Virus record (IMG/VR): IMGVR_UViG_3300032136_000022 | Coordinates: 1-25,217 of that record | Direction: 5' to 3' (one strand) | Source: a virus | Taxonomy: Duplodnaviria > Caudoviricetes | Length of the DNA stretch: 25,217 nucleotides | Shown: positions 1-23,435 of the stretch, one piece after another | How positions within the stretch are numbered: position 1 is the first letter of the stretch | Layout: every line of letters starts with the position of its first letter | Program-made: the position numbers and the translations under genes | Notes under the pieces: model-generated | The model's database searches: none | The model's input: the letters and a program-made list of their open reading frames with translations, nothing else | Told to the model about the DNA's origin: nothing

Positions 1-354
1 AAAAAAAACAAAAACCCGCGACCGACGTCCCTGGTCTGCAAATGCGGCGAACGCTATCCGGTATCGGCGCGGGGGAAGATCCCGGATCTTTGTCACGCCT
101 GTCGAAAGCGTCGCAACGATAACCCGGCGGTCAGGGCCGAAGCCCGGATCGACGCCTTGAAGAAAGCGAAGCGGCGGGTCGTCCGCTGTTCCTGTTGCGG
201 GGTTAACCCGGTCCACAAGGGCTTCCGCTTTCTTTGCTACACCTGCTGGAAAGCGAACGACGGCGACGACGAAAACGCCGGGGTCGTCTCGGCCTACGGT
301 ACGACGGCTTACGGGGTCCCGAAGATCGGCGGGGCGCACCAGGGGAAACAATAA
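1..354 (+). CDS. 5'-truncated protein with two putative zinc-binding Cys clusters
   Basis: Frame 1 is open from base 1: KKNKNPRPTSLVCKCGERY...DLCHACRKRR...RCSCCGVNP...LCYTCWK. The track ORF 157..354 is only its C-terminal part. Confidence 0.7.
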   Translation, partial: KKNKNPRPTSLVCKCGERYPVSARGKIPDLCHACRKRRNDNPAVRAEARIDALKKAKRRVVRCSCCGVNPVHKGFRFLCYTCWKANDGDDENAGVVSAYGTTAYGVPKIGGAHQGKQ

Positions 355-374
355 CCAGCGAAGGGGAAAAGCCT

Positions 375-563
375 ATGGAACCAACGGAACGACAGATCGA
401 AACCGTGGCGCGTTTGATCATGGCCGACGATAAACAATTCAAACTGGGCGCATATCAGGGGGACTTCGACGCCCTGAAGCTGGACCAGCAACTTCGATAC
501 ATCGTCCGGGCGAAGCGGTTTTTCCGGGTCCTGGAAGCCTACGGGGCCTGGGGGAAACCATGA
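375..563 (+). CDS. Hypothetical protein (62 aa, MEPTERQIE...)
   Basis: AAGGGG upstream of ATG 375; the stop overlaps the next start (ATGA). Confidence 0.7.
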   Translation: MEPTERQIETVARLIMADDKQFKLGAYQGDFDALKLDQQLRYIVRAKRFFRVLEAYGAWGKP

Positions 564-808
564 TCTGGCGGCCGAAGCCCGGACAGCCGGTTAGGGTGCA
601 TTATCGGGAAAGCCTACGGGACGCGACGGGGATCCACGGGCGGGCGGGTTTTGTCGTGGCGGTCGGGACTGGGCCGGGGCCGGCCAATGTCCTGGTGGAC
701 CTTTTGGACTGGGCGCCGGTCGTCGTCCCACGGGGGAACCTGGTCGCCGTTAATGCCGTCGCGGTTCGAAGATATGACTACACCGAAAAGCGAAAGGCCG
801 TCCAATGA
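560..808 (+). CDS. Hypothetical protein, possible small SH3/KOW-like beta barrel
   Basis: ATGA overlaps at both ends; PGQPVRV...HGRAGFVVAV...VLVDL...VVVPRGNL pattern. Confidence 0.7.
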   Translation: MIWRPKPGQPVRVHYRESLRDATGIHGRAGFVVAVGTGPGPANVLVDLLDWAPVVVPRGNLVAVNAVAVRRYDYTEKRKAVQ

Positions 809-1422
809 AAAAGATCGAATACGTTACCGCGAAGGAACTGTCCGTCCGCCTGGGCGTTTCCGCCGAAGCGGTCGGTCAACATATCCGTGCGGGGCGCCTG
901 AAGAAGTCCGTCAAAAAGACGGGGACCGGGCGCCAGACCCGATATCGGATCGACTACCAGGCGGCGGTCAAGGAACTTGAAGCGAACATCGATCCTCAAT
1001 ATCTGGTAAACAAACCGACCGGCGGCGGGAAGAAGAAAAAGGCCCCGGCGAAGGGGGCCAGGAAGAAAGCCCCGGCGCCTAAAAAAGCGGCGAAGGGTAG
1101 GGTCAAGGCCCCGGCGAAGACGGCACCAGCGAAGCCTGGCGAAGCGACGGCGTCGACGTTTACCGAAGCCCGGACCGCGACGGAACAATACAAAGCGAAA
1201 ATGCGGCGCCTTGAGTATGAAAAGGCGTCCGGCCTACTGGTCGAAAAGGCGCAAGTCGAAAAGGACGCCTTCGATGTCGCCCGGATCCTTCGGGACTCTT
1301 TGATGGTGATCCCGGACCGGGTCGACGCGATCCTGGCGGCGGAAACCGACCAGCAAGCGGTCAACGAAATTCTTAGGAAAGAAATCAAAGCGGCCCTGGT
1401 CGACGCGATCGGGAAATTTTAA
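805..1422 (+). CDS. terS: Terminase small subunit (Nu1-like)
   Basis: N-terminal HTH (VTAKELSVRLGVSAEAVGQHIRAGRL); C-terminal ARTATEQYKAKMRRLEYEKASGLLV...LRDSLMVIPDRV typical of Nu1-like proteins; lies upstream of the gpA-type terminase. Confidence 0.85.
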   Translation: MKKIEYVTAKELSVRLGVSAEAVGQHIRAGRLKKSVKKTGTGRQTRYRIDYQAAVKELEANIDPQYLVNKPTGGGKKKKAPAKGARKKAPAPKKAAKGRVKAPAKTAPAKPGEATASTFTEARTATEQYKAKMRRLEYEKASGLLVEKAQVEKDAFDVARILRDSLMVIPDRVDAILAAETDQQAVNEILRKEIKAALVDAIGKF

Positions 1423-1438
1423 CAAGGGGGCGAAGCAA

Positions 1439-1765
1439 ATGGACGAACTGGAAAAACGGGCGACGGATTTCTTGCAGTTCAACGTCGACCCACAGGACTA
1501 CCGAAGCAACAACCCGGCATTCCCGATTGTCCTGGACCTACTGATCGAAGTCCGTCGGCTTCGGCGCCAGGTCAGGGATCTATTCGGCGACGACGACGAA
1601 CTGGAAAAGATCTTCGTCGACGGGTTACGCTTAACGGCGCGGCTGAACGCGATCATGGACGTTTTTCTTCGGGCAAAAACAGCAAGGGGGGGCGAAGCCT
1701 ATGGACGAAAGACATCATCCACTATCAAGACTAATGGCCCTGAAGACCGTGGCCGACGATATTAG
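1439..1765 (+). CDS. Hypothetical helical protein
   Basis: AAGGGGG ribosome-binding site; 108-aa ORF whose 3' end overlaps the next gene by 65 nt. Confidence 0.6.
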   Translation: MDELEKRATDFLQFNVDPQDYRSNNPAFPIVLDLLIEVRRLRRQVRDLFGDDDELEKIFVDGLRLTARLNAIMDVFLRAKTARGGEAYGRKTSSTIKTNGPEDRGRRY

Positions 1766-1931
1766 GAAACGGGTCCTTCATTCCCAGTTACCGGACGACG
1801 AACGTCTGAAAATGGCCGACGATCTTCTTTTTTTAGGCGACGAAGTCCTTTCGCTTTCGGCGAAACTTTTCGACCGCGCCTATTTGGACGGTTTAAATAG
1901 CGGGATGTTCTGCCGGGGGCCGATGATATGA
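1701..1931 (+). CDS. Hypothetical helical protein
   Basis: AAGGGGGGG ribosome-binding site; the stop overlaps the ATG of the next gene. Confidence 0.65.
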   Translation: MDERHHPLSRLMALKTVADDIRKRVLHSQLPDDERLKMADDLLFLGDEVLSLSAKLFDRAYLDGLNSGMFCRGPMI

Positions 1932-3352
1932 CTTTATTCCTGGCCCTTTTCCCGCTGGTTTTCGTCCTTCCGAACGCTTCCGTCGCACCATTTTCGCGAC
2001 CACGGGACGCGGCCCTGGCCCTATCGCTTCCGGTTTCCGTCGCTTTTTGGGGCCTATCCGGCGGCGGGGTCTACATCGACCCCGGCGTTTTCTTTTTGGT
2101 CGCGACCCTGCTGTCCCTATTGACCCTGGCGACCGTCTTATCCGACCGGCCGGCGATATCGATCCGGGGCCTGATTCGCTTCGCGGCGGCGGTCGCCTTG
2201 GGGCTTGCGGCTACGCGGTCCGCTTTGACCGCCGTCGTCATGGGCGGGGTCGTTCACGCCGTATTCGTCGTCTGTCAACGCCGCTGGCCGGCGACCTGGG
2301 CGACGATCGACCGGCGAATATATTCGGCCGAAGGACTGGCGGGAAACACAAACTTTTCTGGCGCCTTCCTGGCCCCCGTCGTCTTCGTCGCGATCGCCGA
2401 CGGCGACTTCCTGGCGGTCCCTTTACTTGTCTACGCCTTGACCCTGTCCCGTTGCCGGGGCGCCTTTGTCGGGGCCGTTGCCGGCGCCTTCGTCGTCAAC
2501 CCTTGGGCCGGCGCGGCGGCGGCGGCCGGCGCGATCGTCTACGCGGTAAAGACCGGACGGACCGGGTCTTCGTACCGGCTGGACGTCTGGCGATCGGCGA
2601 TCCGGCGGATCGGGATCCGGAACGCCTTTGTCGGGGAAGGCGTCGGCGTTTCGAAGATTCGGTCATCGCTGATAAAGCGGGGCGTCCGGTTTCGGTGGGC
2701 GCATAGCGACGCGATTCAGCTCGCGCTGGACGCCGGAATCCCGGCGGCGATCATCCTTCAGACTATCGGCGCCTGGTCCGCATTCGCGGCGTATCAGTCC
2801 GGGGCGCCCTTTCTTTCTGCGGCGATCGTTTGCCTAATGGTTTCGGGCCTTTTCCTGAATACGCAATCGATCGCCCTGACGATGGTCGTCTTTTGGGTCG
2901 TCGTCGGACAGGCCGGACAGGCGTCCGGGGTCGTCTACGCGGCGCCGTCCTGGTGGCCTGTCGCGGCGGTCTTCCTGGCGGCTATCGCGGCCGCGACCTG
3001 GGGCCGGTCCTTCGTCGCGGACGTCGTCTTCGGGGCCGGATTCGGTCGGCATCGGTCGGCGGTCGCGGCGCACGTCGTCAACCCGGACGATTCGAAAATC
3101 GCCTATTATTTGATCACGGGCCTGGTCAATGGCGGACGCCACGACGTCGCATTCCTGAAAGCAACGCGGCTGGCCGACAAGTACGACGGCGAAGTAGATA
3201 TCGAAACCGTCCTATGGCTTTTAGGGGCAACGGCGGCGAACGCGGGGGCCTACGGTATCGCCCGAACCGAACTGTCGCGCCTTTTGGAATACAACCCGGC
3301 GGCCGGCGGCGCGGCCGAACTTCTTTCGAAACTGCCTGGGGCAACGAACTGA
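1928..3352 (+). CDS. O-antigen ligase/polymerase family (WaaL/Wzy_C/PglL-like) polytopic membrane protein with a TPR-like C-terminus
   Basis: Many hydrophobic segments plus motifs in family order: GLAGNTNFSGAFL (GxxGNxN), LTLSRCRGAFVG (SRG-like), SSYRLDVWRSA (RxxxW), FVGEGVG (GxGxG), WAHSDAIQLALDAGI (HN-like catalytic His); TPR-like helices ending RLLEYNP. Confidence 0.8.
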   Translation: MTLFLALFPLVFVLPNASVAPFSRPRDAALALSLPVSVAFWGLSGGGVYIDPGVFFLVATLLSLLTLATVLSDRPAISIRGLIRFAAAVALGLAATRSALTAVVMGGVVHAVFVVCQRRWPATWATIDRRIYSAEGLAGNTNFSGAFLAPVVFVAIADGDFLAVPLLVYALTLSRCRGAFVGAVAGAFVVNPWAGAAAAAGAIVYAVKTGRTGSSYRLDVWRSAIRRIGIRNAFVGEGVGVSKIRSSLIKRGVRFRWAHSDAIQLALDAGIPAAIILQTIGAWSAFAAYQSGAPFLSAAIVCLMVSGLFLNTQSIALTMVVFWVVVGQAGQASGVVYAAPSWWPVAAVFLAAIAAATWGRSFVADVVFGAGFGRHRSAVAAHVVNPDDSKIAYYLITGLVNGGRHDVAFLKATRLADKYDGEVDIETVLWLLGATAANAGAYGIARTELSRLLEYNPAAGGAAELLSKLPGATN

Positions 3353-5175
3353 TGCCGACGCCGTATAAAATAGCCTTTGCCGAAGGCCTTCAACCCGATC
3401 CGGACTGGACCATCACGGAATGGTCCGATCGTCGCCGAAAGCTGGCGAAGGGGGCGTCACCTGAACCGGGTCAGTATCGGTCAAGCCGGACCCCGTACCT
3501 GATCGAAATCATGGACGAACTATCGCCGACCAGTCCGACCGAAGAAGTCGTCGCGGTAAAGCCGACGCAAACGGGTTTTACCGAAGTCGGGAATAATTTG
3601 CTTTTTTGCGTCGCGGATCTTTACCCGGCGCCATGTATTTTTGGCATGCCGACGGACCAGCTAGTCGAACGGCACGTCAAAAAGAAAATCAATCCGTCGC
3701 TTCGGGCAATGGGGAACCTGGGCGGAAAGATCAAGGACCCACGGACCAGGGACGCGGGGAATACGATGCGGCTGAAGGAATTTCCCGGCGGAAACTGGAC
3801 CTTTACTGGCTGCAATTCTCCGGTCGCTTCGCGGTCGGATTCCGTCCGCTTCCTGGTCCGCGACGACTACGACGGCTGGATCGCGGAAGCCGGCGCCGAA
3901 GGCGACCCCGGCGAACTCATGAAAAAACGAACCGACGCCTATGGCCGGCGGCGGAAAATCTACACAAACAGCACACCGACGGTCAAAGACCGATCGAAGA
4001 TCCAGGCGGAATTCGACACTTCCAGTCAAGGGCATTACAGCGTCCCCTGTCCCTGTTGCGGCTTCCTTCAATTTTTGGAGTGGGGCGGGACCGACGTCGA
4101 TTTCGGGATCAAATTCGAAAGGGACGCCGACGGCCAGGTCACGGCGGCCTGGTACGTCTGCCGGGACTGCGGCGCCAGGATCAAAGAACATGAAAAAACC
4201 TGGATGATGGACCCGGACAACGGCGCCAGATTTATCCACAAATACCCGGACCGGAAAAAACGCGGTTTTAAAATCAATGGACTCTATTCGCCCGTCGGGT
4301 GGGTTTCCTGGGTTACGATCGCCCAGGAATTCGTTGATAGCAAGGGGAAGCCGGGGAAGCGCAAGGTCTGGCACAACACCCGTATGGCGGACGTCTGGAC
4401 CGAATACGAACGGATTCGGACCGAAGACGCGATCCTGGTCCTTCGCGACGATCGCCCCCGTGGGCGCGTCCCTGGCGGCGGGGTCGTCGCCGGGGTCTTC
4501 GGGTCGGTCGATACCCAGGACGACGGGTACTGGTATCGGATCCGCGCCTTCGGCTTCGGCGGCGCCGACCTTACGAAAGAATCATGGGGGATCCGCGAAG
4601 GCTTTGTCCGGACGGACGCGGACCTGGAACAGGTCCTGTTCCGGGACGTCTACATGGACGCCGACGGGGTCCAGTACGTCGTACAGCTTGCGATCATCGA
4701 CGCCCTGGGGCATAGGACGGCGGACGTCTACAAGTTCTGCCTGAAGCACCGTGGGCGGATCTTTCCGTCGTTTGGCCGTCAAACAATGACCGCCCCCTAT
4801 AGCTGGACAAACCTTGAATGGTGGCCTGGGACGAAAAAAGCGATCCCCGGCGGACTTCGCGGGATCAACGTCAATACGAAATACTTCAAAGACGAACTGT
4901 CGTCCCTTTTATCGATCGAACCGGACGACCCCGGCGCCTGGCACGAAAACGCGGAATTTACGCGGGACATGGCGCAACACATGACAGCCGAATATATCAA
5001 CGCGAAGGGTCACTGGGAATGTCCCGGCGGCAAGGCGAACCACTTATGGGACTGCGCGGTCCTGTCCCTGGTGGCGCACGAAATCAGCGGGATAAAGTAC
5101 CGGCCGAAGCCGGAAGCCGGGAACGAACACCGGACGCCGGGGCGCCGGGTCCGATCGAAGGGGGTGGCGGCATGA
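3352..5175 (+). CDS. terL: Terminase large subunit, lambda gpA family
   Basis: Start at ATG 3352 (TGATG overlap); PEPGQYRSSRTPYLIEIMD, Walker A-like KPTQTGFTE, Walker B-like FLVRDDYD, STPT motif, Cys pairs CPCC/CRDC, nuclease motifs VDTQ and NHLWDC. Confidence 0.95.
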   Translation: MPTPYKIAFAEGLQPDPDWTITEWSDRRRKLAKGASPEPGQYRSSRTPYLIEIMDELSPTSPTEEVVAVKPTQTGFTEVGNNLLFCVADLYPAPCIFGMPTDQLVERHVKKKINPSLRAMGNLGGKIKDPRTRDAGNTMRLKEFPGGNWTFTGCNSPVASRSDSVRFLVRDDYDGWIAEAGAEGDPGELMKKRTDAYGRRRKIYTNSTPTVKDRSKIQAEFDTSSQGHYSVPCPCCGFLQFLEWGGTDVDFGIKFERDADGQVTAAWYVCRDCGARIKEHEKTWMMDPDNGARFIHKYPDRKKRGFKINGLYSPVGWVSWVTIAQEFVDSKGKPGKRKVWHNTRMADVWTEYERIRTEDAILVLRDDRPRGRVPGGGVVAGVFGSVDTQDDGYWYRIRAFGFGGADLTKESWGIREGFVRTDADLEQVLFRDVYMDADGVQYVVQLAIIDALGHRTADVYKFCLKHRGRIFPSFGRQTMTAPYSWTNLEWWPGTKKAIPGGLRGINVNTKYFKDELSSLLSIEPDDPGAWHENAEFTRDMAQHMTAEYINAKGHWECPGGKANHLWDCAVLSLVAHEISGIKYRPKPEAGNEHRTPGRRVRSKGVAA

Positions 5176-5547: not shown

Positions 5548-5769
5548 ATGACGGTCAAGACATACGCGGAACAGCTAGAAGAAGTCCAGACGGCGATCAC
5601 GAACGTCCTAACGGGCGCCCAGTCGATGACGGACGGCGACGGACGGGCGGTCACTCAGGCGAACTTAGAAACCCTGTATAAGGCCGAACAGCGACTGCGG
5701 GTCCTGGCCGATAGGGAAGCCGGGGGCGGTGGGATCCAGGTCCGCCAGGCGACGCCGGTCGACGCATGA
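5548..5769 (+). CDS. Head-to-tail adaptor, lambda gpW-like
   Basis: 73 aa between terminase and portal; EQLEEVQTAI...GAQS...GRAVTQANLETL pattern; GGGGGG before ATG 5548. Confidence 0.8.
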   Translation: MTVKTYAEQLEEVQTAITNVLTGAQSMTDGDGRAVTQANLETLYKAEQRLRVLADREAGGGGIQVRQATPVDA

Positions 5770-7388
5770 GGGAAATCGTCGAAGCGGCGTCGACCGCAAA
5801 GCTGAACACGATCGACCGAATCGTCGCGGCCGTCAACCCGGCGGCCGGCGTCCGGCGCCTTCGGTCAAGGGCGATCCTGGCGATGGCCGGCGCGTATCAC
5901 GGCGCCAGCAAAAAGCGAAAGGCCCTTTCCGAATGGTCGCCTTCGGCCGGGGACGCGGACGCGGATATCATCGCCGAACTTCCCGACCTTCGCGAACGGT
6001 CGCGGGATCTTGAACGAAACAACCCGCTGGCGACCGGCGCGATCAACACGAAATGTACGTCGATCGTCGGGACCGGCCTGAACCTGAACGCCCAGGTCGA
6101 CCGCGACGTCCTGGGATGGGACGACGACTTCGCCGACGCCTGGGAACGCCGGACCGAAGCCGAATTCGCCCTTTTTTGTCGCTATTGCGACGTCGAAGAC
6201 GTCCTTCCCTTTACGCCAGGATTCCAGGACCTTTCGCTTCGGTCGACGCTGATCAATGGCGACGTTTTTATCCTGACCCCGATGGTCGAAGACAAGCGGA
6301 CGCCGTACAGGCTAAAACTGCAAGCCGTCGAAGCCGATAGGGTTTCGAACCCGAACAATAGGGCCGACACCGATCGCCTGGCCGGCGGGATCGAAAAGGA
6401 CGCAAACGGCCGGCCGATCCGGATCCACGTTTTGAAGGGACACCCTGGGAACCCGTATTCGTCAAAAAACGAATGGATCCCGGTCGATATCTACGGCGCA
6501 AAAACCGGGCGGCGGAACGTCATTCACCTATTCGACAAAAAGCGGGTGGGCCAGACGCGGGGCGTCCCGGACCTGGCGCCCGTGATCGAAATCCTAAAGC
6601 AAATGGGGCGCTACACCGACGCGGAAGTCCAGGCGGCGGTGATTTCGTCCTTTTTTACGGTCTTTGTCAAAAGCGAATACGGGGGCGGGGGCGTCGGCAA
6701 TCCGCTTTTAGGGCCGATGCAACCGACGGCCGACGTCGGGGGGAAGACGTCCGACAAGGACTATAAAATGGGATCCGGCGCGATCCTGGAACTTCTCCCG
6801 AACGAAGACGTCACGACCGCGAACCCTGGGCGCCCCAACGACGCTTTCGACCCCTTCGTTCTGGCCCTGTCCCGACAGATCGGCGTCGCCCTTCAACTTC
6901 CGTATGAAATCCTGGTCAAGCATTTTACGGCGTCATATTCGGCGGCCCAGGCGGCGCTGTTGGAAGCCTGGAAGTTCTTCATGACCCGACGGGTCTGGCT
7001 GGCGCAAAGTCTTTGCCAGCTTGTCTATGAACTTTTCATGACCGAAGCCGTCGCCCTGGGCCGGATCTATGCCCCCGGCTTTTTGACCGGCGACCCGCTG
7101 GTTCGCGAAGCCTACCTGGGCGCCGATTGGATCGGTCCGGCGCGGGGCCAGATCGATCAAAAGAAAGAAATCGACGCGGCGGCGCAACGGGTCGCGGAAG
7201 GCGTTTCGACCCTATCCGAAGAAACGGCCGCCCTGACCGGCGGTGACTGGTCTAAGAAGCACCGGCAACGGGTCAAGGAAGTCCGGAAGCGGGTCGAAGA
7301 CGGTCTTCAGCCCGATCCGTCGGCGGCAACCAAACAGGCCCCGGCCCCGATGCCGGCGCCGGAAGAAGACCGGGGGGACGACGAATGA
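5766..7388 (+). CDS. Portal protein, lambda family
   Basis: LRERSRDLERNNPLA, GQTRGVPDLAPV, SYSAAQAALLE, QIDQKKE motifs; 540 aa. Confidence 0.95.
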   Translation: MREIVEAASTAKLNTIDRIVAAVNPAAGVRRLRSRAILAMAGAYHGASKKRKALSEWSPSAGDADADIIAELPDLRERSRDLERNNPLATGAINTKCTSIVGTGLNLNAQVDRDVLGWDDDFADAWERRTEAEFALFCRYCDVEDVLPFTPGFQDLSLRSTLINGDVFILTPMVEDKRTPYRLKLQAVEADRVSNPNNRADTDRLAGGIEKDANGRPIRIHVLKGHPGNPYSSKNEWIPVDIYGAKTGRRNVIHLFDKKRVGQTRGVPDLAPVIEILKQMGRYTDAEVQAAVISSFFTVFVKSEYGGGGVGNPLLGPMQPTADVGGKTSDKDYKMGSGAILELLPNEDVTTANPGRPNDAFDPFVLALSRQIGVALQLPYEILVKHFTASYSAAQAALLEAWKFFMTRRVWLAQSLCQLVYELFMTEAVALGRIYAPGFLTGDPLVREAYLGADWIGPARGQIDQKKEIDAAAQRVAEGVSTLSEETAALTGGDWSKKHRQRVKEVRKRVEDGLQPDPSAATKQAPAPMPAPEEDRGDDE

Positions 7389-8518
7389 ACTGGTATGAAA
7401 TCAAAGCGGCGACCGACAAAAAGCCGGCGCGAATTATGGTCTACGGCTACATCGGCCAGACCTGGGACGGGCGCGGCGTAGAAGCGAAGAAGTTCATCGA
7501 CGAATTGAACGCATTGGACGTCGACGCGATCGATCTACACATCAACAGCGGCGGGGGGCAGGTCTTCGAAGGGACCGCGATATATAACGCCTTGAAGGCG
7601 CACCGGGCGAAGATCACGGTCCGAATAGACGGCATAGCGGCTTCGATCGCGTCGATCATCGCAATGGCCGGCGATACCGTCGAAATGCCGGAAAACGCTA
7701 TGATGATGATTCACGACCCGATGGGGGTCGTCGCCGGAACGTCCGAAGATATGGAAAAAATGGCGGACGTTTTGGACAAACTGAAAACCGGCCTGATCGC
7801 GACCTATCACGAAAAGACCGGCGTCGACGCCGAAGACCTTTCGACGATGATGACCGACGAAACCTGGATGACGGCCGGCGAAGCCGTGAAACTGGGTTTC
7901 GCCGACGTCGTGATCGGTCGCGTCGAAGCGACGAACAACTTCGGCGGGGAAGAAATCCTGAACCAATATCGCAACGTCCCGCAAAACCTGACGGCCGTGA
8001 TCGGCCAGAAACAGCAACCCGAAGCACGAAAGGAAGAAGACATGAAAACCTTCAAAGCGGAAGAAATCAACGCCGATCTGATCAAGGCCGAATTCCCGGA
8101 AATCGCGAAGGCACTGGCCGAAGACGGCAAACCCGAAACCCTGAAAGCGGGGGCGACCGCCGAACGCGAACGGATCCAGGGCGTCCTGGAACAGTCGATC
8201 CCTGGTCACGAAGACCTGGTCAATTCGCTGGCCTTCGACGGCAAGACAACGCCGGCCGAAGCGGCGATCAAGGTCCTGGCGGCCGAAAAGAAGATCCGGG
8301 CGACGACCATCGACAACCACGCGGCCGACGCCCCGAAGCCGGTCGAACAACCGTCGACCGACGACGACGCCCCGGCCCCGGTCAAAAACCTGTCGCCCGA
8401 AGACCGATGGGAAAAGGACCCGAAAGTCCGGGCGGAATTCGACGACGACAAGGACGCCTTTCTGGCCTACGCGAAGGCGAACGCTTCCGGGCAGGTCCGG
8501 ATCCAGGGCAAAAAATAA
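7385..8518 (+). CDS. ClpP-type (S14) head maturation protease with C-terminal scaffold-like region
   Basis: HINSGGG, GIAASIAS (Ser), MMIHDP (His), ETWMTAGEAVKLGFAD; charged helical C-terminal half. Confidence 0.93.
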   Translation: MNWYEIKAATDKKPARIMVYGYIGQTWDGRGVEAKKFIDELNALDVDAIDLHINSGGGQVFEGTAIYNALKAHRAKITVRIDGIAASIASIIAMAGDTVEMPENAMMMIHDPMGVVAGTSEDMEKMADVLDKLKTGLIATYHEKTGVDAEDLSTMMTDETWMTAGEAVKLGFADVVIGRVEATNNFGGEEILNQYRNVPQNLTAVIGQKQQPEARKEEDMKTFKAEEINADLIKAEFPEIAKALAEDGKPETLKAGATAERERIQGVLEQSIPGHEDLVNSLAFDGKTTPAEAAIKVLAAEKKIRATTIDNHAADAPKPVEQPSTDDDAPAPVKNLSPEDRWEKDPKVRAEFDDDKDAFLAYAKANASGQVRIQGKK

Positions 8519-8534
8519 GACGGGACAACCCGTC
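8519..8534. promoter_or_regulatory. Small stem-loop without a U tract
   Basis: GACGGG-ACAA-CCCGTC perfect 6-bp inverted repeat immediately after the protease stop. Confidence 0.35.
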
Positions 8535-8567
8535 GAACATTCCAAAAAGTAAAAGGGGGAAAGAACA

Positions 8568-9329: not shown

Positions 9330-9345
9330 CACAACGAATAACCGG

Positions 9346-15024: not shown

Positions 15025-15392
15025 CAGCCTGGGCGACCTGGTACTTCACGCCCCCGGCGAAGCGTATGGACTGCGGGACCTGCCGGCGGTCACAACGGGA
15101 CGGATTCATCAACATAACTTGCGAAGGGATCGATTATGTCGAAAAGTGCAAACGGCCGACCGACGCGATCCCGAAGCTATCTGACCGGATCCGCCGGTCG
15201 TGGGCCTTCGCCGAAAAGTATCTTCCCGGCGTTGTTCGTCCCGACGGCGGTTTCGACTTTTCGGGGCTTATGTCCGCGATGGACCTGGCCGGCGTCCCGA
15301 AAGGTCAAAGGCCTATTTTATACGATCGATGCCTGGTCGTTATCGAAGCACTAAGGGAAGCACGGCGGAAATATGGCAAAGCTGAAACTTGA
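15003..15392 (+). CDS. gpT-like chaperone extension (probable -1 frameshift product; alternative independent start at ATG 15066)
   Basis: Open -1 frame overlapping the end of the chaperone and ending in the TMP start; GGFDFSGLMSAMDLAGV...LVVIEALRE pattern. Confidence 0.6.
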   Translation, partial: GGVRTGLTAWATWYFTPPAKRMDCGTCRRSQRDGFINITCEGIDYVEKCKRPTDAIPKLSDRIRRSWAFAEKYLPGVVRPDGGFDFSGLMSAMDLAGVPKGQRPILYDRCLVVIEALREARRKYGKAET

Positions 15393-17814
15393 TTTATTAG
15401 TCGACGATAAGGGGTCGGTCGTCGTCAAAGCCTTCGGGAAGCACGCCCAGACCGCGATGAACGTCGCAAAGACCGGCGCCGTCGCGGCCGGGGCCGGGGT
15501 CGCGGCCCTGGTCGGCGGCCTTTACGTCGCGAACCGGGTCATGTCCGAAGCCGTCGCCCTGGCGAATACCCAGGAAAAGGCGGAAGCGAAACTGGGCGCC
15601 GTCCTTCAAGCGACCGGCAACGCGGCCGGCTACAACCTTGACCAGATGAAAAAAATGGCGTCGTCGATGCAAGCCGTGACGACCGTCGGCGACGAAGTCA
15701 TTCTGGGCGGCCAGGCGATCCTGGCGTCCTTCAAGCAGATCCGGGGGGAAGCCTTCGAACGGGCGACAATGGCGGCCCTGGACATGGCGGACGTGATGGG
15801 GACCGACCTGAATTCCGCGATGGTCCAGATCGGGAAAGCGGTCAACGACCCGATCAAGGGCCTGTCCGCTTTGTCGCGGGTCGGCGTTACCTTCACCGAC
15901 GAACAGAAAAGGATGATCGCGGCCCTTCAAGAGTCGGGGCGGGTCGCGGAAGCGCAAGCGATCATCCTGGCCGAACTTGAGTCCGAATTCGGCGGAGCGG
16001 CGGCGGCGGCGCGGGAAACCTTCGGCGGCGCGGTCACGGCGGCCGGCAACGCCTTGGGGGACATGAAGGAAGAATTGGGCTTCACAATCACGCGGTCAAA
16101 ATTCTTCACCGACCTGGTCAAAATGGCGGAAGCCCAGTTCATCGCCTGGGGGAACGCGATCGCCGACAACCGGGTCGACCTGCAAAACCTGGCGAAGGCC
16201 GGGATCCTGTACGTCGTCGACAAGATGGGCGTCGCGATCGAAACGCTTCGCTTTTTCCACAATGGATGGTTGGGCCTGAAGATGGTCGGCCAGACCGCGA
16301 TAAACGTCCTGGCGACGTCAATCGATGTCCTGATCAAGGGCCTTCGGATCCTACTTTTCCCGCTGGACGAACTCATGAAGGCCCTGGTCGCCCTGGGCGC
16401 GATCGATTCGAACCCCTTCGACGCCCTGACCCGAAGCACCGAACAATTTAAATATGCGACGCGGGACGTCACGGCCGAAATCGTCGCGGATATCGAAAAG
16501 ACGAACGCCGGCTACGACGCCGTCAAAAAGAAGCTGAAGGCCTGGCGCGACGGGGTCGCGGCGATCCCCGTCGTCGCGGCGAAGGCGGAAAAGGCCCAGG
16601 TCAAGCAATACGCGGCGATCACCGACGCGGTCGTCCAGACGTCGAAGGAAAAAGCAAAAGCGGCGAAGGCGGAACTGAAGCTGGCTTCGGAAATCGCGAA
16701 AGCCTACGGTAAAATGTACGGCGATCTAAAGGGGAAGGCCCAGGGTTATTTCGATTTCAAGATCGCGGCCTTACGCAAGGAACGCGACAACTACAAGGCT
16801 TTGACCCGCGACCAGGCGACGGTCGATCGATGGTACGAATCGCAACTTGAAGACCTACTGGACGAACGCGCCCTGGCCCACGGTAACTTCTTCGACGGGG
16901 TCGGCGCCGGTTATCGCCGTATGCTTCGGGACCAGTACACATGGGCGCAAGGTGGCCTGGCGGTCTTCGATACCTTCACCAGTTCTGCGAAGTCAATGTT
17001 TTCCGACGGTCTTTTCCGGGCGATGAAAGGCGACCTTTCGGACTTCAGCGACCTTTGGCAGGGCTTCCTTGATTCGATGCTTCGGTCCTTCGTGGATATG
17101 ATCGCCCAGATGGCCGTCCAGTGGGGGACCCAGTCCGTTATGGGAATGGTCGGCCTTCCGGTCCCCGGCGGCGGCGGGGGGCTGGTATCGTCGGCTTTAC
17201 AAGGTTACGGGATCTCAAGCCTATTCGGCGGCGGCGGCGGTTACGGCGCGACGGCCCTGGGGGGCGTTTCGATGGCCGGCGAAGCCAACGTCGCCGGACT
17301 GGCGGCGGCGGAAGCGGGAATCGGGTCGGGGTTTTCATTCGCGTCGGCTTTGCCCTTCCTGGCGCCGATATCGCTTCCTCTGTTACTGGGTCCCGGCGGA
17401 CTTGGACAAGCGGCCAGCAACGTCTTCAGCGGCGTCGGGAACGTGATTCACGACGTCGTCGGCGGAATCGGCGATTTTATCGGGGGAATTTTTCATCAGG
17501 GCGGAATCGTCCCTAGAGCTCACGGCGGAATGTTCCTGGGCGCCGATGAAAGGCTGGTCGTCGCACAGACCGGGGAAGGGATCCTTTCGCGGTCCGCGAC
17601 CCAGGCGATCGGCGGGAAGCCGGCGATCGATGCGATCAACGCCGGGGCCGTCGCCGGGGGGGACAGTCGGCCGATCGTCTTCGTCAATAAGGGTGTGATC
17701 GCGACCGACGACGTCGCCCGATGGTTTGCCGATATGCTTCAAAAAGTAAACGATGGCCGGGTCGGAAATCGGATCCAGTACGTCGAAGCGGCGGAAGCGG
17801 GGATCGATATATGA
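15373..17814 (+). CDS. Tail tape measure protein
   Basis: 813 aa, Ala/Gly-rich and helical; QIGKAVNDPIKGLSALSRVGVTF core; C-terminal FHQGGIV...AQTGEGIL. Confidence 0.93.
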   Translation: MAKLKLDLLVDDKGSVVVKAFGKHAQTAMNVAKTGAVAAGAGVAALVGGLYVANRVMSEAVALANTQEKAEAKLGAVLQATGNAAGYNLDQMKKMASSMQAVTTVGDEVILGGQAILASFKQIRGEAFERATMAALDMADVMGTDLNSAMVQIGKAVNDPIKGLSALSRVGVTFTDEQKRMIAALQESGRVAEAQAIILAELESEFGGAAAAARETFGGAVTAAGNALGDMKEELGFTITRSKFFTDLVKMAEAQFIAWGNAIADNRVDLQNLAKAGILYVVDKMGVAIETLRFFHNGWLGLKMVGQTAINVLATSIDVLIKGLRILLFPLDELMKALVALGAIDSNPFDALTRSTEQFKYATRDVTAEIVADIEKTNAGYDAVKKKLKAWRDGVAAIPVVAAKAEKAQVKQYAAITDAVVQTSKEKAKAAKAELKLASEIAKAYGKMYGDLKGKAQGYFDFKIAALRKERDNYKALTRDQATVDRWYESQLEDLLDERALAHGNFFDGVGAGYRRMLRDQYTWAQGGLAVFDTFTSSAKSMFSDGLFRAMKGDLSDFSDLWQGFLDSMLRSFVDMIAQMAVQWGTQSVMGMVGLPVPGGGGGLVSSALQGYGISSLFGGGGGYGATALGGVSMAGEANVAGLAAAEAGIGSGFSFASALPFLAPISLPLLLGPGGLGQAASNVFSGVGNVIHDVVGGIGDFIGGIFHQGGIVPRAHGGMFLGADERLVVAQTGEGILSRSATQAIGGKPAIDAINAGAVAGGDSRPIVFVNKGVIATDDVARWFADMLQKVNDGRVGNRIQYVEAAEAGIDI

Positions 17815-20183
17815 CAACTAAACTGATCGCGGAAAACATACTGGCGAAAAGTCATTTCCTTTCGGCGACCGAACAGGCGGCGCCATTTGCCGCACAACCG
17901 ACGCCGGACGCCGGCAATACCGGCGCCTTTAGGCTATTGGCTTCGGGGGACGTGGCGGATCTGGTGTACTCAGGGACGGCAACCGGCGACGGATCTACAA
18001 CGACGATCGTCGATTCCGTCCTGTCGGCCCTGGGCGACGACTACCTGATCGGCGCGACGATCGAATTCACGGGCGGGGAAAATACGTCGGGAACGGCGAC
18101 GATAACGGACTTCGCCCAGGCGACGGGGACGATCACCTGGTCCGGGGCGGTCAACTCGACCCTGACCGGCGATACCTTCACGGTGACCCTGCCTTTTTCA
18201 ACCCGCGAAATCCAGGTCGAACTTGTGGCCGGCGGCGACGCCGGAACGGCGACCTTTAAATGGTCGCACGACGGGGGGACGACCTGGCTAGGGCGCGACG
18301 CGATCGCCCAGAATAATTTCGTCGGGAAGCGAACGCTGTCTGGCGGCGGTGAAATGCCGTATATCGTCGAAGCGGCGAACGGCGACCTGGTCGCCCTATT
18401 CGGTTCGTCAGGCGATAGCGAAATCCTGGCCTATATTTCGGACGACGGCGGCCTTACCTGGGGCGCGGCAATAACGGCGGCGACGACTTACCCCGGCTGT
18501 AAGGCGCCGGTCGTCCTGGCTTCCGGCCGGATCTGCTTTTTCCGGAATAACGTCATGGTCTACAGCGACGATCACGGTCAGACCTGGAACGAAATCGCTT
18601 CGACGGCTTACGGCATGACCGGATCTAATATGCTTCTTCCGGACGGGTCGATCCTCAATATCGGGTCGAACTCATATTCGATATGGCGACAGGTTTCGCG
18701 GGACGGCGGCCTGACCTGGGAAGAATCCGCCGAAGTGATCGCCGACACGAACGACCAGAAACAGGCGACGGCGGTCGTCGCGGCGAACGGGAACATAGTT
18801 TGTGTCTACGCTTCCGACGAAGATTCCCTGGCCGATTTTGAAATCAAGTGCAAGATCAGCGAAGACAACGGCGTCACTTGGGGAAGCGTGATCGCCGTCG
18901 CGAATTTTGGCGGGACCGATCTACAATACCCAACGGCGGCTGTCGATCCTTCGGGTCGGATCTATGTCACTTACCGGGCGTCGAACACGATCTACACGGT
19001 TTACAGCGACGACCACGGCGAAACCTGGTCGGCTTCCGTTAATTATAGTCCGGGCGGGTCCGTCGAAAACATCAGTCTTTCGATGGTTCACGGTCACCTG
19101 GCCGTTGTTATCTGGACCGATTTCACCGACACCTATGTCGCCTTTCGCGGCGCCTGGGAAGCCTATTCGGCGAACGCCTGTCCGGTCGCGGTCGACGTCA
19201 AAGATCAACGGCTGGCGGTCGGGGTAGAAATCGCCTGGCACGGCGGCGCCGGGGTCGCTGGCGACGCCTGGACCATTTCGCCCGACTACGGCTTCGCGGC
19301 GTCGAACATCATCACCGATTCGCCTTCCCGGCCGTGGCGATCGGAACAGGACGACGCGGCGATCGCGATCGTTATCGACATGGGGGAAAACGTCCGGCAC
19401 ATGGTCGACGGCGTCGGCTTTTTTGGCTGTAACGTCCGGACCCTTTCTTTTCAGATGAACGCGACCGATTCCTGGGGATCCCCGTCCGTCGACGAAAGCG
19501 TTTCATTTGACCTTGCGACCGGGACCGTCGACGCCGTCGCCGGGAACGCGATTCAGGACACTTCACTTCTGGCGGGGTACAAAGACCACGCCTTGAAAAA
19601 CCTATTCTTCCGGCCGACGTCCGGGACCGACGACGGGGTCACATGGCGGATCCTTGACAACGTCGGATCCTATATCATGCTCGACACGACGGCGGCGCAT
19701 AGCGTCGGGGCGGCGGACACTTTCGCAATATTCCAGGCAAGCGTCGCGAAGACCTTCACGGGGGGGCTGTATCGCTTTGTCCGGATCGCGATCGCGGCAC
19801 AGGAAACGGCGGACGGCTTTTACCAGATCGGGACGATGGTCGCCGGCCTATCGATCGCCCTGACCCGGACCTGGAAGCCCGGTTACGGTCGGTCATACGT
19901 CTACGATATCGAAATGATCCGGACGCCACACGGCGGGCTAATTCCGATAAAGGGCGCCGACCGGAAGCGGCTTTTTTCCGTCGGCTGGTCTTCGGACGAA
20001 GACACGACCCAGGAAGTCCTGGCCCTGGTCGATTACCTTGAAGGGAAGAACATCGCTTTGATCCCCGACGCGGCGACCCTGACCAATGCTTACCTTGTGA
20101 AGTCGATCGGCGATATCCGCCAGATCCACAAAAGCGGCGATGCCCGTTTCGACTTTACCCTGCAACTGGAAGAAATCTTATGA
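17811..20183 (+). CDS. Distal-tail-position protein with an Asp-box (BNR) beta-propeller, sialidase-like fold
   Basis: ATG 17811 overlaps the TMP stop; SHDGGTTW, SDDGGLTW, SDDHGQTW, SRDGGLTW, SEDNGVTW, SDDHGETW; Dit-like end FDFTLQLEEIL. Confidence 0.8.
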   Translation: MTTKLIAENILAKSHFLSATEQAAPFAAQPTPDAGNTGAFRLLASGDVADLVYSGTATGDGSTTTIVDSVLSALGDDYLIGATIEFTGGENTSGTATITDFAQATGTITWSGAVNSTLTGDTFTVTLPFSTREIQVELVAGGDAGTATFKWSHDGGTTWLGRDAIAQNNFVGKRTLSGGGEMPYIVEAANGDLVALFGSSGDSEILAYISDDGGLTWGAAITAATTYPGCKAPVVLASGRICFFRNNVMVYSDDHGQTWNEIASTAYGMTGSNMLLPDGSILNIGSNSYSIWRQVSRDGGLTWEESAEVIADTNDQKQATAVVAANGNIVCVYASDEDSLADFEIKCKISEDNGVTWGSVIAVANFGGTDLQYPTAAVDPSGRIYVTYRASNTIYTVYSDDHGETWSASVNYSPGGSVENISLSMVHGHLAVVIWTDFTDTYVAFRGAWEAYSANACPVAVDVKDQRLAVGVEIAWHGGAGVAGDAWTISPDYGFAASNIITDSPSRPWRSEQDDAAIAIVIDMGENVRHMVDGVGFFGCNVRTLSFQMNATDSWGSPSVDESVSFDLATGTVDAVAGNAIQDTSLLAGYKDHALKNLFFRPTSGTDDGVTWRILDNVGSYIMLDTTAAHSVGAADTFAIFQASVAKTFTGGLYRFVRIAIAAQETADGFYQIGTMVAGLSIALTRTWKPGYGRSYVYDIEMIRTPHGGLIPIKGADRKRLFSVGWSSDEDTTQEVLALVDYLEGKNIALIPDAATLTNAYLVKSIGDIRQIHKSGDARFDFTLQLEEIL

Positions 20184-21745
20184 CAACGATCGCCGAAGCC
20201 CTGAAGATCGCCCGGAAGCCCTGGGTCCTTGTCCAGGCGGACTTCCAGGGGCTTTTGAAGCGGTGGGCCGTGAAAAACCTTTCGGTCCCGTATTCGGCCG
20301 GGGATCCGCTATTTTTCGAAGGACGACTTTTGGCCGAACCGGCGATAGGGACGTCCTTTTCGCTTGAGTCAATGACCTGTAGTCTTCGAAGCCTGGAAAT
20401 GACCATCGCGAACGACGGACGGCTTCAGGACGAAGAAGTCCGGCGCCGGCTGGACGGCGCGAAGGTCACCGTCTATTTGTGGGCCGATGGTCTTGACTGG
20501 GCCGACATCGCCACGAACGGCGTCCTTTTTCGCGGGTACTTCGCAAAAAAAAGCCACGACGCGAAGCGATACGCTTTCACGGTCACGGAATCGCCGTTGA
20601 TTGAATTCGGCGCGATCCCCAGGACGACGATCAACGCGGCGACCTGGCCGTCGCACCGCACCGAAGGCGGCGCCGGATCCGTCGCCGGACTACCACAGGC
20701 GATCGTCTACGGCGACTGGCCCCGTGGCGTCCCGCTGAAATGTATCGACACTTCAGCATATAAGTACCTTGCAATGGCCGGCGAAAGCGATTCGACCGAC
20801 GCCGACTACACGGCGACCACGGTAAACGTCTATGACAAGGACGGCGCCGTCGTCGCGGCCGGCGGTTTCACGTTTTACCCGGCCGGTAGGGACGGCAACG
20901 GCGGGGCGGTGAGCTACTTTGATTTCACGGCGGACAAAGTCGCTTCCGAACCTTTGTCGGCGTCAATTCGCGGGATCCCGGATTCATCCGGATTCTATAC
21001 CGGGACAACGGACGCCCTGATCGAACATCCGGCGCATATCGTCCACCACTTGATAGCGACGGAAACGAAGACGGCGCACGATCGAATTGACGTCCAGTCG
21101 CTAAAGACGATGGCGGCGCGGCTTCCCGGCGTAAAATTCGCGACGATCATCAACAAAGCGACCGACGCGATCGCGGTCGTCGATCGGATCCTTGGGCAAT
21201 GCGCTTACGCCAGGACCCAGGCGCGGGGGGCGGCGGCGGTCTTCGGGATCCATCCGGACGCCCCGGTCGTCTATCGGTCGGGACGGTCTTCCCAGGCCGG
21301 CGACGTCGTGATGATATCCAGGACCCCGGATTCGAAGGTCGTCAATGATCTATCGGTAAAATACGGCTTGAATCCGTCGACCGGGGCTTACGAAAGCGAA
21401 ATGGCTTTCGACTATACGAACGATAGTCTTTGCCGGCTTTCGGTCTACCAGTACGGGACCAGGCCACGGGTCACGCTATCATATCCGGACGTCCAGGACG
21501 AAGGGACGGCGCGGGTCCTGGCGCAAAGATACCTATCGCTTTTCGCGTTTCGTCACGATATCGTCGAAAGAAGCGAACCGGCCTTCCGTTGTATTGATAT
21601 CGTTGAAGGCGACGCGGCGGAACTGGACGTCCTGGAAGGCCCTTCGGTAGACGGCGCCGGATGGGTCGCGGAGAAATTCATCCTGATCGAAAGGGCCATC
21701 ACGGGCGCGGTTATCAATCAAAAGTGGTGGCGGGTGGCGACATGA
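20180..21745 (+). CDS. Tail tip/baseplate hub protein
   Basis: 521 aa after the distal tail gene; PQAIVYG, IEHPAHIV, VVNDLSVKY, SVYQYG...VQDEGTA patterns typical of hub proteins. Confidence 0.7.
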   Translation: MTTIAEALKIARKPWVLVQADFQGLLKRWAVKNLSVPYSAGDPLFFEGRLLAEPAIGTSFSLESMTCSLRSLEMTIANDGRLQDEEVRRRLDGAKVTVYLWADGLDWADIATNGVLFRGYFAKKSHDAKRYAFTVTESPLIEFGAIPRTTINAATWPSHRTEGGAGSVAGLPQAIVYGDWPRGVPLKCIDTSAYKYLAMAGESDSTDADYTATTVNVYDKDGAVVAAGGFTFYPAGRDGNGGAVSYFDFTADKVASEPLSASIRGIPDSSGFYTGTTDALIEHPAHIVHHLIATETKTAHDRIDVQSLKTMAARLPGVKFATIINKATDAIAVVDRILGQCAYARTQARGAAAVFGIHPDAPVVYRSGRSSQAGDVVMISRTPDSKVVNDLSVKYGLNPSTGAYESEMAFDYTNDSLCRLSVYQYGTRPRVTLSYPDVQDEGTARVLAQRYLSLFAFRHDIVERSEPAFRCIDIVEGDAAELDVLEGPSVDGAGWVAEKFILIERAITGAVINQKWWRVAT

Positions 21746-21945
21746 TGGGCGAAATCGCGAAGATCGTCGAAGCACTTCCGGCCGAAGTCATTATCAGGAT
21801 CATCCCCACGGCGGCGCTATTGTACGTTATTTTTTTGCTAATGCGGTATATCACAAAGCAGAACGACGCGATCGTCGCGAATACAACGGCGGTCAATAAG
21901 CTGGCAACCATTATCAACGTCATGTCGGGGTTTAAAAATGATTAA
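21742..21945 (+). CDS. Small single-TM protein (holin/antiholin-like)
   Basis: ATG 21742; IIPTAALLYVIFLLM followed by an NTTAVNKL coil; first gene of the lysis cluster. Confidence 0.55.
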   Translation: MMGEIAKIVEALPAEVIIRIIPTAALLYVIFLLMRYITKQNDAIVANTTAVNKLATIINVMSGFKND

Positions 21946-22156
21946 ATTTTTTAAGGACGCGGCATTGATTCGCCGGAAGATGATCGCCGTCCCGGCCGGA
22001 CTTGAGGCAATCGAAGAAGCGCAAGCCGACACGACGGCGAAGATTGAAGAAGCGGAACGATTGCTATTGAATGGCGAAAAAAAGTGGTTCGCCGATAAGC
22101 TCGAAAAGGCAGACATCATTTGCGCCTGTCAACTTAACGAAAGGATGCCGGGATGA
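21938..22156 (+). CDS. Hypothetical coiled-coil protein
   Basis: 72 aa; overlaps both neighbours. Confidence 0.6.
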   Translation: MIKFFKDAALIRRKMIAVPAGLEAIEEAQADTTAKIEEAERLLLNGEKKWFADKLEKADIICACQLNERMPG

Positions 22157-22488
22157 ACTGCGACTACACCCTTTTCGCCTATCTTTTCGTGGCGGCGACT
22201 GCTACCTGGGGCGCCGTACTTTTCACGATCCGGATCGTCGAAATCGCGACCCGAACGAACCTGGAAGTCGGCCCCGTTTACGCCTATGTAACCGTCATGT
22301 TTTACGGGATCGCCTTGACCTTTTGGACGAACACCTGGGCGCGGATTTTAAGGGCGCGGGACACGGCGGAATATATCGCGTTTATGGGGTCCTGGTGGTG
22401 GTCGGCGCGGACGGTCGTCTTCGGCCTTGCGATCCTGGCGATAGTGGTTCACATGACGGCGCGATGGATAAGGACGAAAAGCCTATGA
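22153..22488 (+). CDS. Three-TM membrane protein, holin candidate
   Basis: Three hydrophobic helices; directly upstream of and coupled to the endolysin. Confidence 0.6.
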   Translation: MNCDYTLFAYLFVAATATWGAVLFTIRIVEIATRTNLEVGPVYAYVTVMFYGIALTFWTNTWARILRARDTAEYIAFMGSWWWSARTVVFGLAILAIVVHMTARWIRTKSL

Positions 22489-22904
22489 AGCCCGAACTGA
22501 TCATCCTTCACCATAGCCTGACAAAGGATTCCCGGACGGTATCCTGGGACGCGATCCGGCGCTATCACGTCGGGACGAATCACTGGTCCGATATCGGCTA
22601 CCACTTTGGGATTGAACGGATCGAAGATACCTTCGAAGTCCTGGTCGGCCGGATGCCCGACCGGATGGGCGCCCACTGCCGGGGGCAGAATTCCCGGTCC
22701 CTGGGGATCTGCTTCGTCGGCAATTACGACATGGGTCCGCCCCCCCCGGAAATGTGGGTCAAGGGTCTGGGCCTGGTCCGGTCCCTGATGAACGTCTTCG
22801 GGATCCCGGCCGATCGCGTCCGGGGCCACTGCGACTTTGCCGACAAAACCTGTCCGGGGAAGGCCTTCGGGATGGATCGATTCCGGGCCGGTCTGGTCGC
22901 CTGA
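22485..22904 (+). CDS. Endolysin, N-acetylmuramoyl-L-alanine amidase (Amidase_2, T7 lysozyme-like)
   Basis: IILHHS, WSDIGYHF, GAHCRGQNSRSLGICFVG, GHCD...KTCPG zinc-ligand motifs; start at ATG 22485. Confidence 0.93.
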   Translation: MKPELIILHHSLTKDSRTVSWDAIRRYHVGTNHWSDIGYHFGIERIEDTFEVLVGRMPDRMGAHCRGQNSRSLGICFVGNYDMGPPPPEMWVKGLGLVRSLMNVFGIPADRVRGHCDFADKTCPGKAFGMDRFRAGLVA

Positions 22905-22916
22905 AAGGGGGAAACA

Positions 22917-23435
22917 ATGCTTCCAATTTTACCGCTGGCGATGTCCCTGGTCGAAGTCGTCCCCTGGCTGGCCGGGAAGCTGATTGGCAAGGACGCGGCG
23001 AAGACGGCTTCGAAGGTCGTAGACGTCGCGAAAGCCGTCACCGGGATTCAGGACCCAGGCGAAGCAATCCGATCCGTCAAAGCGGACCCGGAACTGGTCC
23101 TAAAGCTGGAAGCGTCGCTGATCGACGCCGGGATCAAGTACGACGCGGCGGAATTTGCCGACGAAGCCGACCGCCGGAAAGATATCCGCGAAAGCGGTTT
23201 TCTTTCGCGGCAAGTCAGGCCCGTGATCGCCCTGACCTTTCACGGTTTCATTTGGTGGGTTATTTTGACCGGGAACAACGCTGCGGAAATCGCGGAAAAG
23301 ATCGGGATCGAAATTTTTACCTGGGGGTCGGCGAAGATCACGATCGGCGGCGCCTATTTGATTATCATTGGTTTTTACTTTTTGACTAAGGGCCTGAAGG
23401 ACTATTTGATCGGCAAAAACCCGAAGGGCGTTTAA
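22917..23435 (+). CDS. Holin-like membrane protein (GTA/3TM holin-like)
   Basis: KVVDVAKAVTG...ADPEL...ADRRKDIR...VRPVIAL...IIGFYF; two C-terminal TM segments. Confidence 0.65.
   Translation: MLPILPLAMSLVEVVPWLAGKLIGKDAAKTASKVVDVAKAVTGIQDPGEAIRSVKADPELVLKLEASLIDAGIKYDAAEFADEADRRKDIRESGFLSRQVRPVIALTFHGFIWWVILTGNNAAEIAEKIGIEIFTWGSAKITIGGAYLIIIGFYFLTKGLKDYLIGKNPKGV

Follow-up and report, generated by a model that had tools for sequence, protein, structure and literature searches.

Gene content of the window

The stretch of DNA analysed here, called the window, is the whole 25,217-base record of a tailed phage (IMGVR_UViG_3300032136_000022). Its first 23,435 bases, the core, have lost nearly every copy of the trinucleotide GAG and of its complement CTC. 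We describe the genes in which this purge is found, its depth and fine structure, and the kind of defence that may have selected for it.

All genes of the window lie on the + strand, with the late genes present and the early and replication genes missing. Judged by matches to PHROGs and Pfam, the core (1..23435; 47 GAG/CTC sites, evenly spread) is the morphogenesis half of a lambda-like siphophage, encoding packaging, head, tail and lysis functions. The terminase small subunit (805-1422) and the gpA-type large subunit (3352-5175) enclose several small genes and a 474-amino-acid membrane protein, and this region (805..5175) has 0-5 sites per kb. The multi-pass membrane protein (1928-3352) has no match in PHROGs, Pfam or NCBIfam; we take it, by eye, to resemble an O-antigen ligase. 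The head genes follow: a lambda-type portal (5766-7388), a ClpP-type protease (7385-8518; 0 sites in 1134 bp), a decoration protein and the Mu gpT-like major capsid protein (9388-10344), all within 5766..10344. The tail region (12370..21745; 1-3 sites per kb) contains the tail tube and two tail proteins, the tape measure (15373-17814), a BNR-repeat protein (17811-20183) and a tail protein (20180-21745). An amidase endolysin and then a membrane protein (22485..23435; 0 sites) are the last purged genes.

The purge ends at an exact boundary. An AT-richer patch at 23436..24870 (+ strand, 39-44% GC) holds a 132-amino-acid gene and the N-terminal part of a choice-of-anchor-Q domain protein, and has 25 GAG/CTC sites against 33 expected. 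The GC-rich C-terminal part of this last gene (24871..25217, + strand) is purged again, with 1 site against 8-12 expected. The patch is likely a recent import that serves as an internal control. Its recombination edge lies inside the last gene, and a contig break with lower depth at 23547 hints at alternative versions in the population.

The purge is no artefact of assembly, since contigs of a second sediment sample are identical to the core over many pieces, and the join at 23435 is spanned by one contig of the sediment run that may be the source. The phage DNA is present in that run and in two runs of the second sample; three sediment runs (X1-X3) give almost identical letters for the phage. 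In a low-depth contig covering 8651-8757, none of the 18 differences listed creates GAG/CTC by eye, and these are too few to count.

GAG/CTC is purged from both strands and all frames

A first-pass annotation, made by eye, had put the number of GAG plus CTC in the core at about 45-50 where several hundred were predicted. The exact count is 47 (18 GAG and 29 CTC), and 200 dinucleotide-preserving shuffles of 1-23435 give 672 +/- 18 (minimum 626). The first-order observed/expected ratio is 0.07, nowhere near 1; 93% of the expected copies are gone, a reduction of about 14-fold. GAG/CTC is by far the lowest of the 32 trinucleotide pairs in the whole window, the next being CAC/GTG at 0.62. The surviving core sites are evenly spaced (mean gap 474, sd 434).

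The annotation had described the loss as symmetric between the strands, and on the coding strand GAG stands at 18/290 (0.06) and CTC at 29/364 (0.08). In the 30 core genes, Glu is GAA 360 times and GAG 11 times (11/371), and CTC supplies 12 of 572 Leu codons; in 15 related loci of matched GC content, which are our controls throughout, GAG makes up 62% of Glu and CTC 27% of Leu codons. Off-frame copies have gone too. Synonymous-codon shuffling predicts 55 and 39 GAG in the other two frames of the core genes, where 4 and 3 are found, and 20 and 111 CTC, where 9 and 8 are found. The near-exclusive use of GAA, the near absence of Leu CTC and the missing out-of-frame GAG had all been seen by eye, and all stand. 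Because the loss extends over all frames and both strands, and is not confined to sense-strand codons, codon bias and mRNA-level causes are excluded. This supports the annotation's proposal that a very short, asymmetric motif is under pressure at the level of DNA.

Probable selection rather than mutation

The purge extends to ribosome-binding sites. None of 30 core starts, chosen by hand, has GAG 3-18 nt upstream, and 22 of the 30 have a run of G there; at 8546..8567 (+ strand), for example, AAGGGGG stands in place of AGGAGG. By one automated rule, GGAG or GAGG precedes 0 of 23 open reading frames in the window and 141 of 328 in the controls. Upstream of the capsid gene, GAG occurs in 46 of 76 undepleted relatives and in 1 of 3 depleted ones.

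These sites bear on a suggestion in the annotation, that a motif-specific, mutagenic base modification eroded the word. A single hypermutable C would cause a missense change in either Glu GAG or Leu CTC, and that codon should then have been kept at conserved sites; both are gone. The disappearance of all three, Glu GAG, Leu CTC and the functional GAG of Shine-Dalgarno sequences, speaks against mutation. The evidence points to selection on DNA, and very probably to selection against a DNA-level reader of N-CTC, where N is any base.

It is very improbable that the word was eroded without selection, by a bias in mutation or repair that the host chromosome shares. Whole cells can reach such a state: in four proteobacterial genomes of about 1 Mb (G011, G012, G013 and G003), GAG/CTC is the lowest trinucleotide chromosome-wide (0.28-0.60), and in G012 GAG accounts for 31 of 783 Glu and CTC for 4 of 1036 Leu codons. 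CTT and TTC, the C-to-T products, are also enriched in the phage. However, these genomes have 34-45% GC against 60% here, and candidate-host DNA is unpurged in all 67 stretches compared (1.24 Mb; GAG/CTC 0.62-1.18). So far as candidate hosts stand in for the true one, the depletion is not shared with the host chromosome.

The bases flanking CTC grade the purge

Each of the eight 4-mers containing the word stands at 0.02-0.30 of the control level, and none is at zero (5-20 copies each). The 5' base has a graded effect relative to the controls: CCTC 5/205 (0.024), TCTC 9/138 (0.065), GCTC 13/166 (0.078) and ACTC 20/78 (0.258), with a chi2 p of 2e-8. The effect recurs at synonymous positions of Glu and Leu, where the two amino acids report on opposite strands: ACTC 11/124, TCTC 5/161, GCTC 5/170 and CCTC 2/391 (Fisher test of A against C, p 5e-6). 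On the 3' side the values are CTCG 8/281 (0.03), CTCC 14/205, CTCT 7/61 and CTCA 18/60 (0.30), an effect that is weaker under a codon-controlled test. AT-rich imported patches were considered as the source of the flank effect and rejected, the local GC of the survivors being 0.616 against 0.601.

Palindromic sites behave differently. The four-base palindromes GATC, TCGA, CCGG and GGCC are abundant, as had been seen by eye. Among 6-bp palindromes, 11 of 64 have zero copies where at least 3 are expected (CCGCGG 0 against 24, CCCGGG 0 against 18, and nine others). Ordinary type II site avoidance thus coexists with the GAG purge, and the annotation's statement that this is not type II avoidance holds for the word, not for the phage as a whole. 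Two regimes can thus be told apart in the phage, an all-or-none one for classical sites, with those 6-bp palindromes at zero, and a graded one for N-CTC, whose 4-mers are low but never zero.

Several ordinary asymmetric sites of 4-5 bp that share CTC (CCTC, CTCC, GCTC/GAGC and others), acting together or in turn, might imitate a three-base word, as the annotation had also considered. CCTC, for example, is the MnlI site. A CTCC N4-methylcytosine (m4C) methyltransferase is described in PMC8919816 and a Dnd motif GAGC/GCTC in PMC12914056; the phage does purge type II palindromes, and an unrelated phage, L487, has a CTCC-centred pattern (3/78). Yet this reading calls for at least four enzymes with one core in common, time and again in lineages that are not related, and none of the eight 4-mers is at zero while true type II sites are. 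Moreover, according to PMC6286503 (Rusinov et al. 2018), avoidance is mostly of orthodox type II sites and by non-temperate phages, is rare for types I, IIG and III, and is weaker in temperate phages. Like type II avoidance, which this phage shows for CCGCGG, CCCGGG and other 6-bp palindromes, the purge affects both strands, but the word is 3 bp long, non-palindromic, graded and incompletely removed, and the phage family includes prophages. We therefore regard a stack of ordinary sites as rather unlikely.

Relatives have purged the word repeatedly

Relatives were examined as 311 related loci of at least 3 kb, a few of them weak matches, after ten duplicates and the window's own record had been dropped. 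Their median GAG/CTC ratio is 0.85, and four of the 311 are below 0.4: L012 (0.12), L168, which equals L075 (0.22), L025 (0.34) and L155 (0.39). In L012, L168 and L025 the purge covers both strands and all frames; G-run ribosome sites are found in L012 and L168 and partly in L025. ACTC is spared in L012, the L168 core (L168 minus two inserted genes) and L025 taken together (17/142 against 26/624, p 9e-4).

A 48-row capsid tree rejects a single clade of the window, L012, L075/L168 and L025 (p-AU 0.001), although this is a single-gene tree and phage mosaicism limits what one gene shows. The window and at least three relatives thus appear, from their sequences, to have purged the word repeatedly and not as a single capsid clade. 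Cultured phages are remote (TerL identity at most 34%), a search with the L168 portal matched only itself, and no complete purged genome was found. A scan for the G-run ribosome-site pattern yielded 120 loci, 78 of them at least 3 kb long with a median of 0.89; only L487 was low. This unrelated 46-kb phage has CTCC 3/78, CTCG 13/100, GCTC 17/103 and low GGA/TCC.

Other relatives lack other words. L012 is nearly without CGTC/GACG (1/18), and CTTC/GAAG is scarce in L223 (3/56) and L224 (7/45). Across L223, L224, L245, L106, L051, L033, L045 and L087 there are further deficits, with TTC at 0.47-0.49 of the trend, AAG/CTT at 0.49, GGA/TCC at 0.52-0.60, CCA/TGG at 0.61 and GCC/GGC at 0.56.

In L168, two inserted genes between terminase and portal (L168:4715-5901), one encoding an N6/N4 DNA methyltransferase, are unpurged. 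This observation is relevant to the idea that the phage itself encodes the reader. A gene of the missing early region would specify a nuclease or an enzyme that modifies bases, this enzyme would attack CTC/GAG in host or competitor DNA, and the phage would avoid self-damage. Only 25 kb of late genes are seen, the trait belongs to the phage and is found in some members of the family but not in others, and inserted genes are unpurged in both the window and L168, all of which would fit. Opposed to this are the lack of any such nuclease or base-modifying gene in the window and of any complete purged genome in which to look for one, together with the integration of family members in host contigs (G567), which agrees poorly with destruction of host DNA. 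We consider a phage-borne reader quite improbable.

Candidate hosts and their defence genes

The host is probably a member of the Desulfobacteria, a class named as in GTDB, as suggested by the sequences of the phage proteins. Named relatives of the terminase come from Desulfoluna, Desulfobacterales, Syntrophus and Desulfobacteraceae, with one Planctomycetes label, and the capsid groups loosely with a Desulfobacula prophage. Of 301 genomes in the likely host class, 3 match the tail protein, and of 401 genomes in the phylum, 31 match the terminase profile. These searches turned up no copy of the phage as a prophage; the best capsid match in genome contigs has 60% identity, and none of the host-genome loci obtained from capsid, terminase and tail-protein searches is CTC-purged. 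A comparison of 116 spacer-like pieces from the loci analysed gave no match to the phage.

Among the candidate hosts, G567 is the one genome that carries a word-purged prophage of this family. The prophage (contig C5, 55000-90893; L414 and L415) has TTC/GAA at 0.67 of the host level, with a sharp edge at the insertion; CTTC and GTTC are at 0.50, and TTTC is the least depleted TTC word. G567 encodes DarT and DarG adjoining a type I restriction locus; of Cas proteins, no more than a fragment of Cas1 was matched. DarT is present in 1 of 7 Desulfobacterota genomes tested.

The reader could be a DarT2-like ADP-ribosyltransferase, a kind also named in the annotation, with an altered motif N-C-T*-C. 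Such an enzyme would modify thymine in single-stranded phage DNA at forks; every further site would mean a further block to replication, and both strands would lose the word little by little. DarT reads a short TNTC-type motif in single-stranded DNA (PMC9967889), and the -2 flank matters here too. DarTG2 is further alike in its T-centred motif and in damage that depends on dose. On the other side, the motifs described in the available part of that source (TNTC, TCT/TTT and TTTW) all have T at -2, whereas here CCTC is purged more than TCTC, and TTTC is the word that the G567 prophage depletes least. DarT acts on single strands, yet both strands are equally hit. The link to G567 is one case, TTC is also a type I-C protospacer-adjacent motif (PAM), and our full-text literature search, mostly of non-subscription journals, found no report of motif purging in connection with DarTG. 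A DarT-type reader is unlikely.

The same TTC-poor sequences (L223, L224 and the G567 prophage) could also be read in terms of CRISPR. Here CTC or GAG would be the PAM of a type I system of the host, and long-term escape would have removed it. CRISPR types I-B, I-C and I-D are present in candidate hosts. Depletion of a PAM, the type I-C GAA/TTC, has been described (Kupczok and Bollback 2014, PMC4246573), likewise for a three-base asymmetric word on both strands, and the same source has GAG accepted as an interference PAM by E. coli I-E. However, Table 1 of PMC8482600 has no CTC- or GAG-specific entry among its 43 pairs of type I PAM and subtype. The nearest PAMs (CTN, CTT, AG, AWG and TTC) are contradicted by the phage, in which CTT/AAG (1.58), CTG/CAG (1.44) and TTC (1.11) are enriched. 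To our knowledge, a fourth base does not typically matter 10-fold for a type I PAM. The depth of the purge (0.07) also sets it apart from the small differences in the I-C table rows of PMC4246573. We find a PAM origin quite unlikely.

Genes of phosphorothioate (PT) systems and of BREX type 4 also occur in these bacteria. In the likely host class, 7 of 231 genomes have a BrxP match at E<1e-80, and BREX type 4 is found in 0.6% of bacteria at large (PMC12914056); the BREX family as a whole is treated in PMC12839542. PADLOC confirms brxP-brxC-pglZ-brxL in G678 and G279. G601 has a split form with brxP, SspC-like and brxL matches. A homologue search with a Desulfobacteria BrxC gave no Bacteroides name among the 120 matches listed. 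DUF4007 occurs in 15 of 401 genomes, and six of its loci were checked, four being Ssp and two methylase-linked; this search missed BrxP. Ssp loci thus occur in Desulfobacterota, and DndC is above the cut-off in 7 of 301 genomes. Full-length DUF6079 ATPases (L560-L589) are present in about one tenth of 301 class genomes, and the one locus checked is BREX type 3.

A possible phosphorothioate-type reader of N-CTC

We tentatively favour, as the leading candidate, avoidance of a relaxed N-CTC defence of the PT type, most likely of the BREX type 4 or Ssp kind; with less confidence, we suggest that the reader is BrxP/BrxC-like. No candidate reader is proven. In Bacteroides salyersiae, brxP and brxC put PT on NCTC, modifying 17% of CCTC, 4% of TCTC and 0.2% of ACTC sites (PMC12914056). 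The order of the purge, C > T > A (0.024, 0.065 and 0.258), is the order of this modification, and the three-base asymmetric CTC core is also shared. The same source reports a second BREX type 4 system that marks GAAG and GACG, a pair that matches the words lost in L223/L224 and in L012. Further three-base PT motifs are C*AG (PMC11931770) and C*CA (PMC9646914). PT enzymes modify a small, shape-selected share of sites (PMC12914056), and the operon type is present in the likely host class.

In the mechanism that we propose, a host enzyme acting on DNA would read N-CTC, and harm would grow with the number of sites. Unmodified sites on incoming phage DNA might trigger exclusion; alternatively, sulfur marks on phage DNA might recruit a PT-reading nuclease, and the B. 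salyersiae BREX type 4 locus carries an McrA-like gene (PMC12914056). Each site would add a small risk, and the phage would gain little by little as its sites fell from about 670 to 47. The preferred substrates would be lost earliest and, unlike for type II sites, complete removal would not be required. A graded, incomplete purge fits PT systems because these modify only a fraction of sites and read shape.

Several points weigh against this explanation. GCTC is purged as hard as TCTC, and the B. salyersiae strain does not modify GCTC; the authors of PMC12914056 report no G*N marks for Brx, and the source gives the Dnd motif G*AGC/G*CTC separately. The 3' flank effect is no part of the published NCTC motif. 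In the three purged relatives, synonymous sites do not place CCTC (12/265) below TCTC (10/253) or GCTC (4/106). The link to the published system is a match in rank order among three values from one gut Bacteroides strain, no host has been identified and no enzyme tied to the phage, and a system found in about 3% of genomes must have persisted in one host lineage if it is to account for a purge of this depth. A deficit specific to CTC is seen neither in four BREX type 4 islands nor in their hosts, the island/host ratio being 0.86 in G678 and 0.88 in G660, with no deficit in G279 and G601. The idea that type 4 islands avoid their own motif was thus unsupported in these four. G567, the sole host with a word-purged prophage, has DarTG but no match to PAPS reductase or BrxP. 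As for the published systems, PMC12914056 presents the anti-phage activity of the NCTC system as untested, and PMC9646914, in its available part, does not describe SspE nicking as site-specific.

The four GAG-poor small genomes, which may be incomplete, have no PAPS reductase match either, and therefore other causes of a GAG/CTC-poor signature exist. We treat these genomes (loci L291-L301) as a separate phenomenon: their flank patterns differ, and three of them were tested for DarT with no match. They carry several methyltransferases. Two prophages of these genomes, L134 and L140, show a one-strand purge, with coding-strand CTC at 3/39 and 0/10 and coding-strand GAG at about 0.6.

Compared with BREX type 4, Ssp systems are an alternative form of PT-type defence. 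SspABCD-SspE/FGH (PMC9646914) also reads a three-base asymmetric word, with single-strand PT at CCA and about 14% of sites modified. CCA/TGG is, however, not depleted in the phage relative to the controls (1.02), and SspE is activated by PT on self DNA. Dpd (CxGCxG) was rejected as the reader for want of a CTC motif, as were the systems in the available part of an EcoSal review. The annotation had raised the prospect of an undescribed system. This takes the remainder of the probability and is possible but not needed, since PT at NCTC by BREX type 4, which the annotation did not name, is already described.

Avoidance of restriction sites is textbook knowledge for palindromes of 4-6 bp, a single copy of which can be lethal. 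When an asymmetric three-base word is cut back 14-fold, graded by a neighbouring base and at the price of rewritten ribosome sites, this implies a defence whose harm scales with site number. It is conceivable, though we hold it with some doubt, that PT-type defences leave a readable footprint, and that N-CTC was lost in the BREX type 4 order, at a cost to Shine-Dalgarno sequences, from this phage and, separately, from no fewer than three relatives. In our full-text search we met no account of phages that purge CTC/GAG or avoid PT motifs. What is new here is the profile of the flanks, the rewriting of ribosome sites, the evidence for more than one origin and the naming of a candidate reader. 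If the reader is of the PT type, whether BREX type 4 and Ssp act via their motif on phage DNA becomes testable, a question sharpened by the marking of only 0.2-17% of sites. Phage genomes would then offer a computational route to the PT motifs of systems in uncultured hosts, and the purging of other words (CAG, GAAG and GACG) would trace back to Brx enzymes of different specificity. Should the reader be of another kind, the N-CTC profile describes precisely what to look for.

A second, weaker deficit in the core

The core has a second and weaker deficit, in CAC/GTG and in CA/TG overall, with CA at 0.66 against 0.97 in the controls. GTG supplies 49 of 575 Val codons against 40% in the controls, and on the coding strand GTG is at 0.40 and CAC at 0.80. 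The deficit is common to L002, in which CAC/GTG is low; in the window it is weak.

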